From the NCBI GenBank assembly GCA_944363605.1, contig CALVUM010000083.1, forward strand, positions 1-50,351: 50,351 bases of DNA. The letters run 5' to 3'. This document shows positions 1 through 50,351 of the stretch, piece by piece. The notes under the pieces are model-generated. The model worked only from the letters and a program-made list of their open reading frames with translations. It did not search any database and was not told the DNA's origin. The translations under genes were made by a program, and so were the position numbers. The stretch comes from an uncultured Bacilli bacterium. Lineage in GTDB: Bacteria; Bacillota_I; Bacilli_A; RF39; UBA660. Position 1 is the stretch's first letter, and the number at the start of each line of letters is the position of its first letter.

Positions 1-1
1 T

Positions 2-1345
2 GAATTTACCGAACAAACAAGTTCAATCGCCTTAAATAACACTTATCCAATAAGTGATACAAAAGGACTTACGACAAATCCATATACGTTTACGATCAAA
101 AACACCTGTACAATTGATGCCTCATACAATGTAACCTTAAATACTTTAACTACGAATACAATGAATAAAAGTTGGCTAAAATATGCTATTTATAAAAGTA
201 CAGAAATAAAACCAACAACAGGAACAAATCTAGGAACAAATACAAACTATAATACCGCAACGGAAGAATTACAAATCACAAACTTAGATGAATCCATAAT
301 CATTGCGAGTGGCGAATTAAAACAAAATGAAAGTGTTACCTACAATTTTTACTTATGGATGGATGAAACAACCGGAAATGAAGCAATGAACACCAAATTC
401 GAAGGAAGTATCAACATAATAAGTTCAGCTACCAAAATAGAAACGGCAGCTGATACGATTCTAGCTAAAGGAGAAACAAGTGAACTTGCCTATGATGGAA
501 CAACAGATAATAATCTAAGATATATCGGAGCCGATCCAAATAATTATGTTTCATTCAATAATGAGTTATGGCGAATAATCGGAGTATTTAACAATATTGA
601 TGATGGAACAGGAATAAAAGAAACAAGATTGAAAATTATTCGAGCAGAACCGATTGGAAAATATAGTTGGGATAATAAAGCAAGTGGCACAGGATCTTCT
701 ACAAGTGATTATGGAAGCAGTGATTGGAGTGATTCCGCCTTACAACTTGTGCTAAACGAAGGAGCCTATTGGAATAGAACAACCGGAGAATGCCCATATG
801 GACAAAATGATGCGACAACAGCTTGTGATTTTAGTAGTACTGGCTTAACAGAAGAAGCAAAAAGTATGATAGGTACTACTTTGTGGAGTTTAGGAGGAGC
901 AAGTCATTCAAGTTCAAGTACTGGATTAGCAAGTCATTGGTACTCCTATGAAAGAGGAACAACCGTATATAGTGGAAGACCAAAAGAATGGATAGGAAAA
1001 ATCGGACTTATGTATCCTTCAGATTATGGCTATGCGACCAGTGGAGGAACTACAACGAATAGAGAAACCTGTTTAAATGCAGCATTATTTAATTGGAATT
1101 TCTCATCATATAGTGACTGTTATAGTAATGATTGGCTATACGATAGTTCTAACTACCAATGGACATTAACCCCCTACTTTGATAATAGCGCCTACGTGTT
1201 TTATGTGAACGACACTGGGAAAGTGTACAGCACCAATGCGAACTATACGGCTCCTGTCGCCTCCCCCGCCTTATACCTAAAAGCTAATGTAAAAATCAGT
1301 GGGGGAATAGGAACGAGTTCGGATCCGTATAGCTTAAGTCTATAG
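2..1345 (+). CDS. Predicted surface protein, 5'-truncated by the window edge; TasA/camelysin-like N-terminal region and C-type-lectin-like (DUF6273-like) C-terminal domain; candidate DGR target
   Basis: The frame is open from nt 2 (EFTEQTSSIALNNTYPISDTKGLTTNPYTFTIKNTC), aligning with AYPITNDEGMKTIPYTFTIKNTC of the 20114 protein, so ATG 161 is not the true start. Family motifs are NNYVSFNNELWRIIG, IGLMYPSDY, WTLTP and the GIGTSSDPY terminus. Confidence 0.7.
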   Translation, partial: EFTEQTSSIALNNTYPISDTKGLTTNPYTFTIKNTCTIDASYNVTLNTLTTNTMNKSWLKYAIYKSTEIKPTTGTNLGTNTNYNTATEELQITNLDESIIIASGELKQNESVTYNFYLWMDETTGNEAMNTKFEGSINIISSATKIETAADTILAKGETSELAYDGTTDNNLRYIGADPNNYVSFNNELWRIIGVFNNIDDGTGIKETRLKIIRAEPIGKYSWDNKASGTGSSTSDYGSSDWSDSALQLVLNEGAYWNRTTGECPYGQNDATTACDFSSTGLTEEAKSMIGTTLWSLGGASHSSSSTGLASHWYSYERGTTVYSGRPKEWIGKIGLMYPSDYGYATSGGTTTNRETCLNAALFNWNFSSYSDCYSNDWLYDSSNYQWTLTPYFDNSAYVFYVNDTGKVYSTNANYTAPVASPALYLKANVKISGGIGTSSDPYSLSL

Positions 1346-1360
1346 GAAAACGAAAAAAGG

Positions 1361-1389
1361 ACCCAGTCACGCATAAGAGTGACAGGGGT
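1361..1389 (+). repeat. GC-rich imperfect hairpin just downstream of the candidate DGR target
   Basis: ACCCAGTCACGC-ATAA-GAGTGACAGGGGT: GTCAC/GTGAC core with CCC/GGG flanks; no long U tract. Confidence 0.5.
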
Positions 1390-1656
1390 TTGGCTAGTTA
1401 TCCACTTTGATTATTTGATAAAAAGTAAAAGAAGTAATACCTTTGAATTTTTCTCGAAGTAATTAGAAAGCAGGTTTTTGTAAGAGAAAACTTATTTTTT
1501 AATAAGTATTAGGTTTTTAGGGACACGTTAATAAGTTTACGTTTAATAAAAAACGACAATAAAACTCATTATGCGACAAAACCTATCAAAAAAAGCTCTT
1601 GATAGAAAAGAAAAGAGTCTATAGAATATCTTTCCAAGAAACGGAGAGGTATTTTT

Positions 1657-2487
1657 ATGATGGAAACAAAAGAAAAATTTTATACGGCAAAGTATGACCG
1701 AGTTTTTAAAGAAATCTTCTTAAAAGAAGAAAACGAAGATTTATTAAAAGAACTCTTAAAAGTTGCTTTAAAAGAAGTTTCTATAAAAGAAATAAAAAAA
1801 GTGTTAAATGTTGAAAAGAATGTGAGGAATATTCATGTCCGAAGAAAATATGTCGATGTTTTATTAGAAACGGATATTGGCTTAGTCGGGATCGAGATCA
1901 ACAGTTCTGTAAAAGATTATCTGCATGTGAGAAATTTTGCCTATCACTGTGACACCTATGCCCATTACACCGAAACCGGAGAATACTACCGCGAAGATAT
2001 CTATATCATTCAAATTAATTTGACTTATGGAATTAAAAATGATGAAGAAATAATGAGGGTTTATGAAGTACAAGATAAGACCCAGAAAAAGTTTGTCGAA
2101 AACTTCCAGGTAATTGAATACAATATGGACAAAGTAATGGAGTATTGGTATACTAAAGACGAGAAAAAGATAAAGGAATACTTATATTTAATACTTCTTG
2201 ATTTAGGAAAAGAAGAATTAGAAGAAGTAGCAAAGGAAAGTCTGGAGGTAGAGAAATATATGAAAGATTTAGAAAAAGTGAATGAAGATCCAAGGTTCAG
2301 AGAATTTATGACCAAAGAAGAAGATGAAAGAAAAATCAGAAATACCGAATTAAAGGCTGCAGAAGAAAAAGGTTTGTTACAAGGAAAAATCGAAATTGCT
2401 AGGAAAATGCTTTTAAAAAATAAAAGTATAGAAGAGATTATGGAATTTACGAATTTAACTAAAGATGAAATTGACAAATTATTTTAA
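1657..2487 (+). CDS. Rpn family recombination-promoting nuclease / PD-(D/E)XK putative transposase
   Basis: N-terminal KYDRVFKEIF; VDVLLETDIGLVGIEIN nuclease core; C-terminal EEKGLLQGKIEIARKML...SIEEIMEFTNLTKDEI tail; RBS GGAGAGG. Confidence 0.85.
   Translation: MMETKEKFYTAKYDRVFKEIFLKEENEDLLKELLKVALKEVSIKEIKKVLNVEKNVRNIHVRRKYVDVLLETDIGLVGIEINSSVKDYLHVRNFAYHCDTYAHYTETGEYYREDIYIIQINLTYGIKNDEEIMRVYEVQDKTQKKFVENFQVIEYNMDKVMEYWYTKDEKKIKEYLYLILLDLGKEELEEVAKESLEVEKYMKDLEKVNEDPRFREFMTKEEDERKIRNTELKAAEEKGLLQGKIEIARKMLLKNKSIEEIMEFTNLTKDEIDKLF
2260..2487 (+). CDS. Putative intragenic small protein (Rpn C-terminal domain, 75 aa) from an internal start
   Basis: GGAGGT at 2244-2249, 10 nt upstream of in-frame ATG 2260; the same RBS/ATG geometry is kept in the downstream copy. 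Confidence 0.55.
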   Translation: MKDLEKVNEDPRFREFMTKEEDERKIRNTELKAAEEKGLLQGKIEIARKMLLKNKSIEEIMEFTNLTKDEIDKLF

Positions 2488-2612
2488 AAATGTAATAAAA
2501 CCTATCAAAAAAGTTCTTGAAGATAAGGTAATACTTATATTTAATTCTCATTGATTTAGGAAAAGAAGAGTTAGAAGAAGTATCAAAGAAAAATCCGGAG
2601 GTAAAAAAGTAT

Positions 2613-2840
2613 ATGAAAAATTCAGAAAAAGTAAATGAAGATCCAAGATTTAGAGAATTTATGACCAAAGAAGAAGATGAGAGAAAAATTAGAAATACGG
2701 AATTATATGCAGCAGAGGAAAAAGGATTGTTACAAGGAAAAATTGAAATTGCTAAAAACTTATTAGGTGAGCTTTCAATAGAAAAAATATCAGAAGTGAC
2801 TGGTTTAGAAATAGAAGAGATCAAGAAATTAGAGTCTTGA
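2613..2840 (+). CDS. Stand-alone Rpn C-terminal-domain small protein (75 aa), variant copy
   Basis: Nearly identical to 2260-2400 up to KIEIA, then a different tail; GGAGGT at 2597-2602, 10 nt before the ATG. Confidence 0.7.
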   Translation: MKNSEKVNEDPRFREFMTKEEDERKIRNTELYAAEEKGLLQGKIEIAKNLLGELSIEKISEVTGLEIEEIKKLES

Positions 2841-2847
2841 TTTTTTT
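2821..2847 (+). terminator. Possible intrinsic terminator
   Basis: TCAAGA...TCTTGA stem followed by T7. Confidence 0.4.
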
Positions 2848-2931
2848 CTTTGATAAATCCTTGTAAAGTGTTGTATATGCTACTTTCTTCCTTTTTGGTT
2901 TCATGGTATATTTAAAAGGCGGAGGGATGAT

Positions 2932-5163
2932 ATGAAGGAAGAATGGAAAAATTTTAAAGAAGGAGTTTGGATGAATGAAGTTAATGTGTCTGATTTCATT
3001 TTGAAAAACTATACAAAATATGATGATGATGAATCTTTTTTATCTGGAACTACAGATAAAACTGGAAGAGTTTTAAAAAAGGTTAATGATTTATTAAAAG
3101 AAGAATTAGAGAAGCTTGTGTTAGATATTGATGTTGATCACATGGCTTCTATCAATGCTTTTAAACCTGGATATATTAGTGAAAATGATGACGTTATTGT
3201 TGGACTTCAAACGGATGCGCCTTTAAAACGCATTGTTAATCCTTATGGTGGAATAAGGATGGTTTATCAAGAACTTGATGCTTATGGTTATAAATTAAAT
3301 GAAACAGTTGATAAATATTTTAATGAGTTTCGTAAAACTCATAATCAAGGAGTTTTTGATGCGTACCCTGAAAGTGTAAGAAAAGCTAGACATGTGGGAT
3401 TATTGACGGGTCTTCCTGATGCTTATGGAAGAGGAAGAATTATTGGTGATTACCGAAGAGTAGCTTTATATGGTATTGATTATTTGATGGAGCAAAAAAA
3501 GAAAGATTGGGATGAAGTTTTAGTCGGTCCAATGACTTCTCAACTTATTCAGTTAAGAGAAGATGTTTCGATGCAATATCGTGCTTTAGAAGAAATTAAA
3601 AAAATGGCTCTTTCTTATGGGTTTGATATTTCTAAACCAGCTAAAAATAGTCGTGAAGCTGTTCAATGGACCTATTTTGGGTATTTAGCAGCCGTTAAAG
3701 AAAATAATGGGGCGGCAATGAGTTTAGGAAGAGTAGATGCTTTTTTTGATATTTATTTTGAACGTGATTTAAAAGAAGGAACAATTACGGAAAGGGATAT
3801 TCAAGAAATTATTGATCAGTTTGTTATTAAACTTCGTCTTGTAAGACATTTAAGAACACCTGATTATGATGAGTTGTTTTCTGGCGATCCTACATGGGTA
3901 ACTTGTTCAATAGGTGGAATTACTGAAAAAGGCGAATCGATGGTTACAAAAACTTCTTACCGAATTTTACATACATTAACTAACCTTGATCCGGCACCTG
4001 AACCTAATATGACTGTTTTATGGAGCGAACATTTACCAGAAAATTTTAAAAAATATTGTGCTAAACTTTCTATTGAAACGGATTCTATTCAATATGAAAA
4101 TGATGATGTCATGCGTCCAATTTATGGGGATGACTATGCAATTGCTTGTTGTGTTTCTGCGATGCGTGAAGGAAAGGATATGCAATTTTTTGGCGCACGT
4201 TGTAATTTAGCTAAAGCCCTTTTATATTCGATTAATGGAGGTATTGATGAAATAAAAGGGGATTTAGTTATTGATGGATTTTCTAAAATAACGGATGAAG
4301 TGTTAGATTACGACAAAGTGCATGATGCTTATTTTAAAATGTTAGAAGAGGTTGCTTCTGTTTACAGTGATGCGATGAATGTTATTCATTACATGCATGA
4401 TAAATATGCTTATGAAGCTGGACAAATGGCTTTACATGATACATATGTTAGAAGACTTATGGCTTATGGAGTTGCCGGTTTATCTGTAGTAGCTGATTCT
4501 TTGTCAGCAATTAAATATGCTAAAGTTAAACCAATAAGAAATGAAGATGGTATTGCAGTTGATTTTGAAATAGAAGGGGATTTTCCTAAATATGGGAATG
4601 ATGATGATCGGGTAGATGATTTGGCTAAAGAAGTATTAGAAAAATTTTATGCTGAGCTTTCTAAACATAAATGCTACCGAGATGCAGTACCTACTTTATC
4701 TGTCTTAACGATTACTTCAAATGTTGTTTACGGAAGTAAGACAGGAAGTACTCCTGATGGACGGGAAAAAGGAGTTCCGTTTGCGCCTGGAGCCAATCCA
4801 ATGCACGGTAGAGATGAAAATGGCGCGATTGCTTCATTAAATTCGGTAGCAAAACTTAACTATGCGAATTGTTGTCGTGATGGAATATCTAACACCTTTA
4901 GTATTGTTCCTACTTCTTTAGGACATTCTAAGGAAGAACAAATCGAAAATTTAGTTTCTTTACTCGATGGATATTTTATTCAAGGTGCCCATCATTTAAA
5001 TGTTAATGTGTTAAGTCGTGAAACTTTAATTGATGCAATGGAACATCCAGATAAATATCCATTACTTACGATTCGTGTTTCTGGTTATGCAGTTCGTTTT
5101 AACCGGTTAACTCGCAAACAACAAGAGGAAGTTATCGCGAGAACTTTCCATGAAAAATTATGA
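2932..5163 (+). CDS. pflB: Formate C-acetyltransferase (pyruvate formate-lyase)
   Basis: [22 protein letters not shown]; IACCVS catalytic cysteines; TIRVSGYAV glycyl-radical motif. Confidence 0.98.
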
Positions 5164-5882
5164 TGGGAAGCGTTGACTCTATTGAAACATTTGGACTTGT
5201 CGATGGCCCCGGGATTAGAACAGTCGTTTTTTTCTCGGGGTGCATGTTACGTTGTTTATTTTGCCATAATCCAGAAATGTTTCAAAAAAAAGAAAAGAAT
5301 ATGGATGTAGATACTTTAGTAAAAAGAATTTTACGAAATAAGCCTTATTTTAAAAGAAATCAAGGTGGTGTCACATTTTCTGGAGGAGAACCTTTACTTC
5401 AAGTAGATTTTTTATTAGAAGTTTGCAAAAAGTTAAAAGAGGAAAATGTTCATATCGCTTTAGATACAGCAGGTGTGGGAATTGGTAAATATGATGAAAT
5501 TCTTTCTTTGGTTGATTTAGTTATTTTAGATATTAAGCATACCAATCCATTAGGATATGAAAAAATGACTGGGCATAAGATGAATGAAGTAGAGAAATTC
5601 ATTGTTTCTTTAAATAAAAGCGGAAAAGATGTTTGGTTAAGACAAGTTGTTGTACCTAATATAACGGATCAAGAAGAATATTTAGATTCTTTAGTGTATT
5701 ACATTCAAAAAATTAAAAATGTCAAAAAAGTTGAATTTTTACCTTTTCATCATTTGGGATTTGAAAAATATGAAAAGTTAGGAATAAAAAATCCCCTTTT
5801 ACATACAGAGGAAATGGATAAAATTCGTTGCGATGAACTTTATAAAAAATTTTGGGAAAAATATCAAAGTGAGGGAAAATAA
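5160..5882 (+). CDS. pflA: Pyruvate formate-lyase activating enzyme (radical SAM)
   Basis: [23 protein letters not shown] (CxxxCxxC), [10 protein letters not shown]; follows pflB. Confidence 0.96.
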
Positions 5883-17576: not shown

Positions 17577-18113
17577 AAACAAAATATCTTAGATAAGGGA
17601 TACCATGAATATATAGCTGACCCAGGATTCTGTAATGACCGAAGTTTATCAACCAGAAGTAATAACGGCGCTGGAGTGCAAGCAACAGATAAAAATACCT
17701 TTTATGCTGGATTTTCAAGATATTATGAAACCCATAATCCTACCTTAACCTGTCCAAATGAAGAAAACGATTTATTTACTACCAGTACATCAAATGTTGG
17801 AAATAAATCTTTGACTTATTCAATCGGCTTAATCACAGTTGATGAACTAATGTTAGGAGGACTTGTTGATGGGTATTTAAATCGTTTATCTTACACTTAT
17901 TCTTCGCATAATTATTGGACCATGTCGCCTAGGGAATTCCAATCAGAGAATACAGCAGCTATTGGGTTTCGCTCGTACACGTCGGGCATGGCTAATAGCA
18001 GCTGGATTACCGACAGTATTGGTGTCCGTGGAGTCATCAACTTAAAACTAGATGTTGAGATATCTAATGGTATTGGTACATCAAATGATCCGTTTGTCGT
18101 TCAAACGACTTAA
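17577..18113 (+). pseudogene. Start-less 3' fragment paralogous to the C-terminal ~175 aa of the 20114..22123 surface protein
   Basis: In-frame homology begins at KQNILDKGYHEYIADPGFCNDRSLS (17577) and runs to DPFVVQTT-stop; no signal peptide or convincing RBS. Confidence 0.8.
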
Positions 18114-18138
18114 AAATATTTTTCATTATGTTCTTTAT

Positions 18139-20113: not shown

Positions 20114-22123
20114 ATGCTAGAAAAAGTAAAAGAAAATAAAAAAGCGATTCTAATTCTTATAATATTCTTAATTACTTTATGTGTAGGAATCAGTTATGCT
20201 TATTGGCAAATTAGTTTTAAACAGATAGTTGAAAATAAAGTGGCTACTAGTTGTTTGAGCATCGAAATCTTAGAAGAGTCAGATGGAATAAAACTAGAAA
20301 AAGCTTATCCAATAACGAATGATGAAGGAATGAAAACGATACCTTATACATTTACGATAAAAAATACGTGTAATACTTTTCTTGATTATGAAGTATCCTT
20401 AGGAATGTTAGATACGACTACTTTAAATAGTCAATATGTCGCGGTTGTTCTAGATTATAATGAAATCAAAACATTAGATACCTATGAAAGGACAACCATT
20501 GATGGGTATAAAGAAGGAAGAATACTTCAAAAGGGAAGTTTATCACAGGAAGATGAAGTTACCTATAATTTAAGACTATGGATGGATTATAATACACCAA
20601 CATTAGAAGAAACTATGAATCAAGAATTTATAAGTCAAATAGTTGTAACCGCGACTCTTGGAAGTTATAGTCCAGTAGAACTTGGATTTACACGACTTTC
20701 TGATGCCATATTAGTAAATGAATATCAAAGTACCGATGTGGAAAGCGCCAAAACTAAAATAAAAAGTAAACAAGCCCCAGATTTTAGTAAAACAGCTCCA
20801 ATCATTGATTGGGAAGAGAATCATGGAAGTAATCAAACTGTCATTGGATCAAGAATGCCTCATCCTGATTTGGTAGGAAATGGAGAATCTTATACAGTGA
20901 ATTTAACAAATGAAAATATTTTACCAACGATAGGAACAGGATATGAGTTTAATCAAGAAACTGGGAAATATACCTTAACCAATTATCAATATGTGGATCC
21001 AACAACCTTAGATTATAGTAATGACTATTATTACTGTGGGTCCGGCTTTAATACGAATGCAAATGATGTGATTATTCCATATGGTAGTTATGCAAATTGT
21101 ACGACCATATATAAAATAACAAGTGCAATAAAGGGTGATGATGCAATTGAAACAAATAATGGAACAGTGATTAAAACTAAACTTTATCGGATTACTGCCT
21201 ATCAATATGGCCAAACAGAAAGAGAAAGTGATAAATCCGATAAAGGATTATATGTTATGACAGATGATTATGGCGAAAGCTACTATTATCGAGGAAGTGT
21301 TAGTAATAATTATGTAAAATTTGCTGGGTACTATTGGAGAATCGTAAGAATTAATGGTGACAGATCAACAAGGCTTTTATATGCCGGAGAAACGGCTAAG
21401 GCAACAGGAAATGAACTGAACATGAATTTAACAGATAGTAGTTTAGGATATGTTAATCAAAGAACATCCCGATTTAGTAGTCAAAATGTAAATCCGGCAT
21501 ATGTTGGATATATGTATGGAAGCGTTTTAAATAGTAGTTATGGTGAAACGAATGCGAATGAATTTGATTCAGAAATTAAGAAATATTTAGATAGCTGGTA
21601 TAAACAAAATATTTTAGATAAAGGATATAATGAATATGTCGCGGATTCTGGATTCTGTAATGATCGAAGTTTATCAAGTGGAGATGGAGTACTGACAGAT
21701 AAAAACACTTTTTATTCTGGATATCAAAGATATTATGACAAACATAGCCCGACCTTAACTTGTTCAAATAAAGAAAATGATTTATTTACTACAAGTACAG
21801 CAAATATAGGAAATAAAGCTTTAACTTATCCGATAGGATTAATTACCGTAGATGAACTAATGTTAGGAGGTCTTGTTGATGGGTATTTAAATCGACTATC
21901 TTATACTTATTCTTCTTATAGTTATAGAACTATGACGCCTAGCCGTTTTAGTATTAGTGATGGGTCAGCTTATGAATTCGTTGCAAATTCGTCTGGTTAT
22001 GCAAGCTACGACCGAGTTACCACTAACTATGGCGTTCGAGCAATTATTAACTTAAAATCGGATGTAGAAATTAGTGGTGGTATTGGGACTGCGAATGATC
22101 CATTTGTAATTCAAACAACTTAA
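20114..22123 (+). CDS. Predicted surface protein with SipW-type-like signal peptide, TasA-like N-terminal region and C-type-lectin-like (DUF6273-like) C-terminal domain
   Basis: Hydrophobic leader ending GISYAYW; YYYRGSVSNNYVKFAGYYWRIVRINGD, FCNDR, YPIGLITVDE, GVRAIINL, GIGTANDPF. Confidence 0.75.
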   Translation: MLEKVKENKKAILILIIFLITLCVGISYAYWQISFKQIVENKVATSCLSIEILEESDGIKLEKAYPITNDEGMKTIPYTFTIKNTCNTFLDYEVSLGMLDTTTLNSQYVAVVLDYNEIKTLDTYERTTIDGYKEGRILQKGSLSQEDEVTYNLRLWMDYNTPTLEETMNQEFISQIVVTATLGSYSPVELGFTRLSDAILVNEYQSTDVESAKTKIKSKQAPDFSKTAPIIDWEENHGSNQTVIGSRMPHPDLVGNGESYTVNLTNENILPTIGTGYEFNQETGKYTLTNYQYVDPTTLDYSNDYYYCGSGFNTNANDVIIPYGSYANCTTIYKITSAIKGDDAIETNNGTVIKTKLYRITAYQYGQTERESDKSDKGLYVMTDDYGESYYYRGSVSNNYVKFAGYYWRIVRINGDRSTRLLYAGETAKATGNELNMNLTDSSLGYVNQRTSRFSSQNVNPAYVGYMYGSVLNSSYGETNANEFDSEIKKYLDSWYKQNILDKGYNEYVADSGFCNDRSLSSGDGVLTDKNTFYSGYQRYYDKHSPTLTCSNKENDLFTTSTANIGNKALTYPIGLITVDELMLGGLVDGYLNRLSYTYSSYSYRTMTPSRFSISDGSAYEFVANSSGYASYDRVTTNYGVRAIINLKSDVEISGGIGTANDPFVIQTT

Positions 22124-22214
22124 AATATTATTACACATTTTGTGATTGTTTATTTATATATAGAAAATAAAATATTCTTTTTTCAAATCATTTAATTATC
22201 CATATTACGATTTG

Positions 22215-50313: not shown

Positions 50314-50351
50314 TAAAATCATATAAGTAATCCGTATTAATGAGTTCAGTC

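Follow-up and report, generated by a model that had tools for sequence, protein, structure and literature searches.

A gene of an uncultured chicken-gut bacterium very probably carries a remote DGR variable repeat, matching a template repeat on another contig and now apparently static

Introduction

According to the excerpted text of a DGR survey (PMC5758913), non-adjacent targets occur in 45 of 372 DGRs, and the DGR of Treponema denticola has seven of them. In the same excerpts, a non-adjacent target is described as lying outside other DGRs and showing only A-to-N differences from its template, with minor exceptions allowed. Differences other than A-to-N are recorded there in 23% of DGRs, with up to 11 in one target, and the 5' boundary of mutagenesis is given as variable and governed by homology. 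Small MutS-like (MSL) proteins of 112–283 aa are described in the excerpts for 16 DGRs, always together with avd, the Legionella DGR being among them. Large metagenomic surveys of DGRs also exist (PMC8144416).

In the locus described here, the C-terminal coding part of a gene on one contig corresponds to a template repeat (TR) beside a reverse transcriptase (RT) on another contig, C86. Window positions 1171–1269 are very probably a DGR variable repeat (VR) that was written by mutagenic retrohoming, with the template and enzymes on C86, and that is now apparently static.

Results

Compositional Anomaly in the Target Gene

The window is the whole stretch of DNA that was analysed, i.e., contig C83 up to base 50,351, from an assembly of 1.52 Mb in 88 contigs with 28.8% GC and 69.5% completeness. 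The gene under study lies at its start:

2..1345, plus strand: 3' part (447 codons) of the target gene, from the list of open reading frames, running off the contig start

In the segment 1169–1276, taken in frame with this ORF, 55 of 108 nucleotides were G or C. Its 36 codons ended in C (18), T (10), G (6), and A (2), compared with 56 C-ending and 175 A-ending codons among the remaining 411 codons of the ORF (Fisher test, p=1.05e-6 and p=3.2e-6, respectively). When all 36-codon windows of the ORF were ranked, the one starting at 1169 came first both for C-ending codons and for GC content. Across the whole genome, at least 55 G+C was reached by 1,905 of 1,511,648 windows of 108 nt (0.126%, in 36 regions), and these regions include C83:1161-1278 as well as the VR belonging to the C86 cassette.

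A previous sequence-only reading of the window had pointed to this segment as a DGR target, and its counts (55/108 G+C, 18/36 C-ending and 2/36 A-ending codons) were reproduced exactly. The GC-rich block that it placed at the close of the segment is GTCGCCTCCCCCGCC at 1256–1270, and the GC-rich hairpin that it saw past the stop codon was found at about 1359–1391, 13–16 nt after the TAG at 1343–1345.

A GC-rich C-terminal segment exists elsewhere in the window as well. A gene ending at about 17868–18123 reached at least 51% GC at 17917–18035, and it shares a related end motif, ...GVRxxxNLK..ISGGIGTANDPF..., with a gene ending at about 21878–22132. Genes similar to this pair were observed on C34, C32, C9, and C79. 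An AAC-rich template for this second lectin-like subfamily with GC-rich C-termini was not found in a search of the assembly.

A Complete DGR Cassette on C86

A short-word BLASTN search of window positions 1000–1400 against the whole assembly, together with the reverse search, led to C86, whose minus strand carries a complete DGR cassette with the following parts:

C86 14082-12841, minus strand: paralogous target gene, 413 aa
C86 about 12692-12594, minus strand: template repeat (TR), 99 nt, non-coding, AAC-rich
C86, between the TR and the Avd-like ORF, minus strand: MutS_I-like ORF, 141 aa (MutS_I 17.8 bits, cut-off 20.6)
C86, between the MutS-like ORF and the RT, minus strand: Avd-like ORF, 108 aa
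C86 11761-10709, minus strand: reverse transcriptase (RT), 350 aa, intact reading frame

The TR contains 36 A, with AAC present 10 times and AAT 7 times, and sits about 830 nt upstream of the DGR-type RT ORF. The RT matched RVT_1 with 66.8 bits (cut-off 29.6). Its best solved match was chain 8ub7_A (E 2e-17), which we take to be the BPP-1 enzyme, with IGxxxSQ (here IGNMTSQ) and YMDD in register. The Avd-like ORF scored under the curated cut-offs of both models that it matched, with 25.8 bits for bAvd (cut-off 40) and 29.6 bits for NF033474 (cut-off 80). The cassette carries a hairpin and a leader like those of the window locus, and between its cis VR and the TR, 21 of 36 adenines are changed, as against none of the 63 non-A bases.

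The RT on C86 is the sole intact copy of a DGR RT in the assembly. As alternatives, an RT on C35 was rejected on account of 4 stops and 30% identity to the DGR RT, and an RT on C74 (318 aa, with a 371-aa ORF behind it) as retron-like. The latter locus (C74:316-2389), which adjoins a fragment of an Rpn-type repeat, looks like a retron with its effector, judging from the two ORFs.

The sole other TR-like match in the assembly, whose 69.5% completeness means that a closer second TR could exist beyond it, was a remnant at C84:7737-7643 without the non-A variants of the window. The TRs of related genomes (loci L027/L034, L028, L030, L031, and L036) fitted the window VR no better than that of C86. 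These relatives comprise Candidatus Ventrenecus and MAGs from chicken gut that carry the label Bacilli or Tenericutes, and the order target–TR–RT is the same in them. Within the genus, 28 of 47 species genomes had an RT related to the C86 enzyme; of the 15 genomes with a completeness of at least 90%, 13 had one. Stops interrupt several of these RT copies.

Relation of the Window VR to the TR

Two features of the window gene were delimited by alignment to the cassette:

1171..1269, plus strand: variable repeat (VR), 99 nt homologous to the C86 TR
1256..1270, plus strand: GC-rich box GTCGCCTCCCCCGCC (IMH-like), the 3' end of the VR, with TR and VR diverging right after it in a three-way alignment

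The window VR differs from the TR at 15 of 36 A sites and at 6 of 63 non-A sites (Fisher test, p=2.9e-4). The adenine-site differences range over 1175–1254 and comprise six A>C, five A>T, and four A>G changes, all 15 of them on codon positions 1–2. Of the 13 adenine-free codons, 11 hold the third base of the TR, including G/C-ending codons that are rare in the genome. The check proposed in the sequence-only reading gave the result that it foresaw: an AAC-rich, non-coding 99-nt copy exists near a DGR-type RT, and the differences from it are concentrated at template adenines.

Among the six non-A differences, four lie at TR positions 4–12, one is in the middle of the VR (AAC>AAA), and one is a T>C change in the GC box. 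From TR position 13 on, 14 of 16 differences are at adenines and 2 are not. Six is more than the minor exceptions expected of non-adjacent targets, the maximum in the excerpted survey being 11 (PMC5758913).

The GC box is 14/15 identical to the TR, and its single T>C difference sets it apart from both the TR and the C86 VR. The IMH/IMH* boundary reads GTCGCCTCCCCCGCC|TTATAC in the window, GTCGCTTCCCCCGCC|TTATAT in the C86 VR, and GTCGCTTCCCCCGCA|AGTCCT in the TR. The window VR thus shows two properties of DGR targets, namely an adenine-biased copy of a TR and a GC-rich IMH beyond which the TR diverges.

At 10 sites, both the window VR and the C86 VR depart from the TR, and they carry the same base at 3 of these 10, which equals the random expectation. 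Judged from this comparison, the two VRs appear to be independent derivatives of the TR. In the core of the window VR (TR positions 13–99), 49 of 51 non-A sites match the TR (96%), compared with 201 of 247 sites matching the C86 paralogue in the flanking coding DNA, a difference whose significance (Fisher test, p=0.006) is only moderate and comes from pitting a coding paralogue against a non-coding template. Across 83 homologues, entropy in the VR was 3.09 bits under adenine-bearing TR codons (19 columns) and 1.03 bits under the others (13 columns; p=1.5e-5).

Neither the window contig (50 kb) nor the contig upstream of it (6.6 kb) was found to carry an RT, an Avd, or a TR. In the assembly, a template and intact DGR enzymes occur on C86 alone, and the window gene is therefore taken to be a non-adjacent target. 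The relation of VR to TR, the cassette, and the layout of the locus are directly visible in the sequences; homing in trans is what we infer.

Target Protein and Predicted Fold

The full target protein has 494 aa (P0001), one residue of which differs from the window. Its first 47 codons are on contig C51, whose end overlaps window positions 1–86 at 100% identity, and this N-terminal part lies downstream of a histidine-kinase-like gene. A hydrophobic helix at the N-terminus is followed by a beta-rich middle part, and the C-terminal domain has a predicted C-type-lectin-like fold; the target is a gene for a secreted or surface protein. No family was matched in Pfam or NCBIfam searches with the target protein, and PF19789 is precomputed on some of its homologues.

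The AlphaFold model of the whole protein had a pLDDT of 81.9, and that of the C-terminal 290 aa had a pLDDT of 87.6 and a pTM of 0.88. In a fold search with the C-terminal domain model, most of the 50 listed matches were C-type lectin domains with middling scores (Z 4–6). DGR proteins among them were TvpA (2y3c; Z 5.0 over 142 residues) and Mtd (1yu0; Z 4.3). According to the model, the VR falls on the predicted C-terminal C-type-lectin-like fold.

The top fold match was a non-DGR domain, 9qa6 (Z 18.2). The model of window positions 473–1342 aligned over 220 residues, at 20% identity, with 9qa6 residues 39–304, which belong to the N-terminal domain of the IgA peptidase from Thomasclavelia ramosa. 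As modelled, the lectin-like domain and this peptidase domain have clearly related folds. At E <= 0.001, Foldseek returned only 9qa6 for the domain model, and the search with the whole protein added the pilin chain 7ueg_A.

Architecture of the Window Locus

Downstream of the target gene, the window locus continues with two further features:

1346..1475, plus strand: leader of about 130 nt, common to the C86 and C84 cassettes in a four-locus alignment
1542..2487, plus strand: multi-copy Rpn-type element, made up of an upstream repeat and a PD-(D/E)XK nuclease family gene at 1657-2487

By BLAST, window positions 506–1475 are 84% identical to C86:13683-12711. Of the cassette, the window still has the GC box and the CTTATA... 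after it, as well as the hairpin and the leader, in which homology ends about 17 nt before the TR start of the C86 and C84 cassettes. The Rpn-type element then fills the place of the TR–MSL–Avd–RT module. Its gene matched Pfam PDDEXK_2 with 50.8 bits (cut-off 27.4).

Copies of the Rpn-type element with 81–95% identity were observed on at least nine other contigs (C29, C79, C18, C21, C84, C85, C74, C38, and C75), and a partial tandem duplicate lies at window positions 2520–2850. Several of the copies stand at contig ends, and the element therefore probably breaks the assembly. Further downstream, at 2932–5882, 743-aa and 240-aa ORFs resemble pyruvate formate-lyase and its activating enzyme, as seen in their translations.

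The same TR-less junction was found on C75, at 80% identity. The gene on C75 is only 69–85% identical to that of the window (15–31% diverged), and its VR only 45%. Because the core of the window VR is close to the TR (49/51 non-A sites) while C75 shares the junction but diverges in both gene and VR, these comparisons suggest that the window VR may have been rewritten in trans after the local TR had been lost, assuming that the Rpn junction is ancestral to both loci.

A further paralogue of the target, at C84:8753-7540, has a VR-equivalent segment that is no longer TR-like and is followed by the same hairpin and leader. Its TR remnant (7737-7643) has an internal deletion, the spacer after the TR is conserved, and Avd and RT are missing. 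By its layout, this locus is a decayed sister of the C86 cassette.

The G+C content of VR-equivalent segments descends in steps, from 0.51 in the C86 VR and 0.48 in the window to 0.44, 0.43, 0.40, 0.38, and 0.35 in the paralogues on C81, C75, C84, C28, and C22. Such a stepwise fall is as expected if former VRs erode toward the 29% GC of the genome.

Contigs C83 and C81 both run on from the end of C51. The database copies P0001 and P0002 are identical over about 250 N-terminal aa and then have different lectin-like C-terminal halves. Differences between samples in window positions 1–720 form a mosaic of C83 and C81 bases, pointing either to gene conversion between the paralogues or to a fork in the assembly.

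Hairpin Downstream of the Stop Codon

The hairpin past the stop codon has the following extent:

1359..1391, plus strand: interrupted hairpin with an inner stem GTCAC/GTGAC, an 8-nt loop, and an outer G/C stem

As DNA, it folded at -7.7 kcal/mol (z = -3.1), as well as which only 1 of 200 shuffled sequences folded, and as RNA at -15.2 kcal/mol. It stands after four paralogues of the genome (window, C86, C84, and C75), and at the loci of two relatives (L027 and L028) a compensatory change from T-A to C-G was observed. At L030, in a more distant relative, a T-tailed hairpin occupies the equivalent place. No terminator-like site was found at the hairpin, and the Rfam search gave no family for it, the sole match being a chance one to Histone3 (E 0.11).

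In the excerpted description of BPP-type DGR hairpins (PMC3240598), a GC stem of 7–10 bp with a 4-nt GRNA loop lies 4–34 bp after the VR. The window hairpin does not fit this description, as it starts about 90 nt past the VR, beyond the stop codon, and has an interrupted stem of 5 + 3–6 bp with an 8-nt loop. It is therefore no independent support for DGR targeting. The hairpin also follows paralogues whose VRs have lost the match to the TR, and on both grounds it is assigned to the cassette leader and not regarded as a targeting marker. The sequence-only reading had counted it among the DGR features; the structure proved real and conserved, while its position and shape are unlike those of the published DGR target hairpin.

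Sequence Invariance of the Window VR

Part of the stretch is contained in 20 sequencing runs from seven studies, almost all of them labelled chicken gut, and four runs from four studies were compared. In all three runs that span the VR (X1, X2, and X3, from three studies), contigs covering 1009/1027–1298 showed 0 differences, a result that refers to Logan contigs, not reads, in which rare variants are dropped, and one of the runs may be the source of the MAG. In run X7, a contig over 792–1203 likewise showed 0 differences.

Among the differences listed, none fell at 984–1393, and others were present at, e.g., 128 and 412–511. Several of the differences between runs equal the bases of the C81 paralogue and look like gene conversion. 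In X7, a joint (1140>1262, depth 3, side 29) might have represented an alternative VR; it was rejected because its break is situated 30 nt before the VR begins, as would be the case for a paralogue. Pattern scans of metagenome contigs for the VR flanks with the GC box gave 0 matches.

Polymorphism at the VR, which had been proposed as a check, was thus not seen at the contig level, where rare variants are invisible. Of the earlier wording that the gene "is, or recently was" a remote DGR target, remoteness stood, the TR being on C86, and "was" is favoured over "is" in view of the six non-A differences and the invariant VR. A static VR is favoured because the VR is identical in three studies and carries the mid-VR AAC>AAA and the GC-box T>C changes. 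We infer from this that the window VR is quiescent or a relic, frozen rather than mutating, and this is the weaker part of the interpretation.

Discussion

In the mechanism proposed for this locus, the DGR RT would copy cDNA from the AAC-rich TR and place random bases opposite template adenines. In AAC and AAT template codons, the third base would be kept and the first two positions randomised away from A, and the mutated cDNA would then replace the VR upstream of the GC-rich box. The NNC/NNT codons, the few A-ending codons, and 51% GC in a genome of 29% GC would thereby be explained by mutagenic retrohoming from an AAC-rich TR. The window locus itself is a TR-less copy of the cassette (target, hairpin, and leader), in which an Rpn-type nuclease gene stands in place of the TR, Avd, and RT. 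Rewriting of the VR in trans after this local loss appears to be the most likely course, and the window gene would be a former target, re-targeted perhaps only rarely.

This interpretation has to be weighed against a VR that is a currently active remote target, with TR-RNA, RT, and Avd from C86 homing in trans and the observed sequence being the dominant variant. In keeping with such activity, the RT frame on C86 is intact with YMDD and IGxxxSQ, the cis VR carries 21 adenine-only differences, and the GC box (14/15), the downstream CTTATA..., the hairpin, and the leader are all retained in the window. The four 5' non-A differences could also fall outside the homed tract, as the 5' boundary is described as variable in the survey excerpts (PMC5758913). 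However, the VR was identical in the contigs of three studies although the gene varies elsewhere, and homing from the C86 TR should reset both the mid-VR C>A and the GC-box T>C. The sole hint of an alternative VR was the depth-3 contig of X7, which is paralogue-like. Present activity at the window VR is thus judged unlikely. An origin without any retroelement, through selection for binding loops rich in Tyr, Asn, Ser, and Asp or through chance, is improbable in the extreme: such residues are frequent in binding sites of C-type lectins, and the equivalent segment of other paralogues is somewhat raised in GC (0.35–0.44), but neither point meets the strongly adenine-biased match, over 99 nt, to an AAC-rich non-coding repeat next to an RT, the preserved synonymous G/C-ending codons, or a GC content as high as in only 0.126% of genome windows.

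It is also possible, if rather doubtful, that the VR was never homed in trans and is a pure fossil, written in cis by a sister TR that has since been lost, or obtained by gene conversion from the VR of a paralogue in an earlier state. The leader, conserved up to the TR boundary, implies that the locus descends from a full cassette; C84, with its truncated TR and without Avd and RT, shows that cassettes decay in this genome; and the window/C81 mosaic shows tract exchange between paralogues. A slightly different lost TR could moreover explain the six non-A differences. On the other hand, the TR-less junction is common to the window and C75, whose gene is 15–31% diverged, and yet the window VR core matches the C86 TR at 96% of non-A sites. 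Nor are the non-A variants of the window present in what is left of the C84 TR or in the TRs of three relatives. A VR written in trans from the C86 template, and static since, is therefore retained as the preferred interpretation.

As a tentative extension, the genome may hold a series of sister cassettes in decay, with C86 intact, C84 with a truncated TR, and the window and C75 with the module replaced, at most about 50 nt from the TR boundary, by the multi-copy Rpn-type nuclease gene, the window VR still being rewritten in trans afterwards. If true, DGRs with one RT and many remote targets would arise by duplication of the cassette followed by loss of the redundant enzyme module. That loss would possibly be driven by Rpn-type recombination, and orphan VRs would be kept or discarded depending on whether the GC box and the leader are retained.

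The case shows that a DGR target is recognisable by codon composition alone, and through it a gene and an element on separate contigs were linked. With it, the known DGRs gain a multi-target member from an uncultured chicken-gut lineage, whose accessory genes are MSL and Avd-like. In this single genome, the intact cassette, its decayed sisters, and an orphan VR form a natural series for the growth and death of a DGR target family, and this series also bears on the cis elements (GC box, leader, and hairpin) needed by a remote target.

Comparison with Known Systems

Remote targets, non-A differences, and sets of MSL and Avd are already known for DGRs, and the window is a further example. As in Treponema denticola, a single TR and RT serve several paralogous surface proteins with a C-type-lectin fold, some of them distant from the RT. 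In contrast to that system, the window target, apparently fixed, has 6 non-adenine differences, and the locus keeps the cassette leader, so that it resembles what is left of a duplicated cassette and not a free-standing target.

With the DGR of the Legionella pneumophila type, the present one shares the order of target, TR, small MutS-like ORF, Avd, and RT, the MutS-like ORF having 141 aa here. It differs in that the matches to MutS_I and Avd lie below the curated thresholds and that the host, labelled Bacilli or Tenericutes, is an uncultured bacterium of low GC from the chicken gut.

The likeness to BPP-1 and its Mtd protein extends to the adenine-specific transfer from TR to VR, the GC-rich box at the 3' end of the VR followed by divergence, the position of the C-terminal VR in a predicted lectin fold (Z 4.3 to Mtd, 1yu0), and the IGxxxSQ and YMDD motifs of the RT, which align. 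Unlike in BPP-1, the hairpin of the window lies about 90 nt past the VR and has an interrupted stem with an 8-nt loop.
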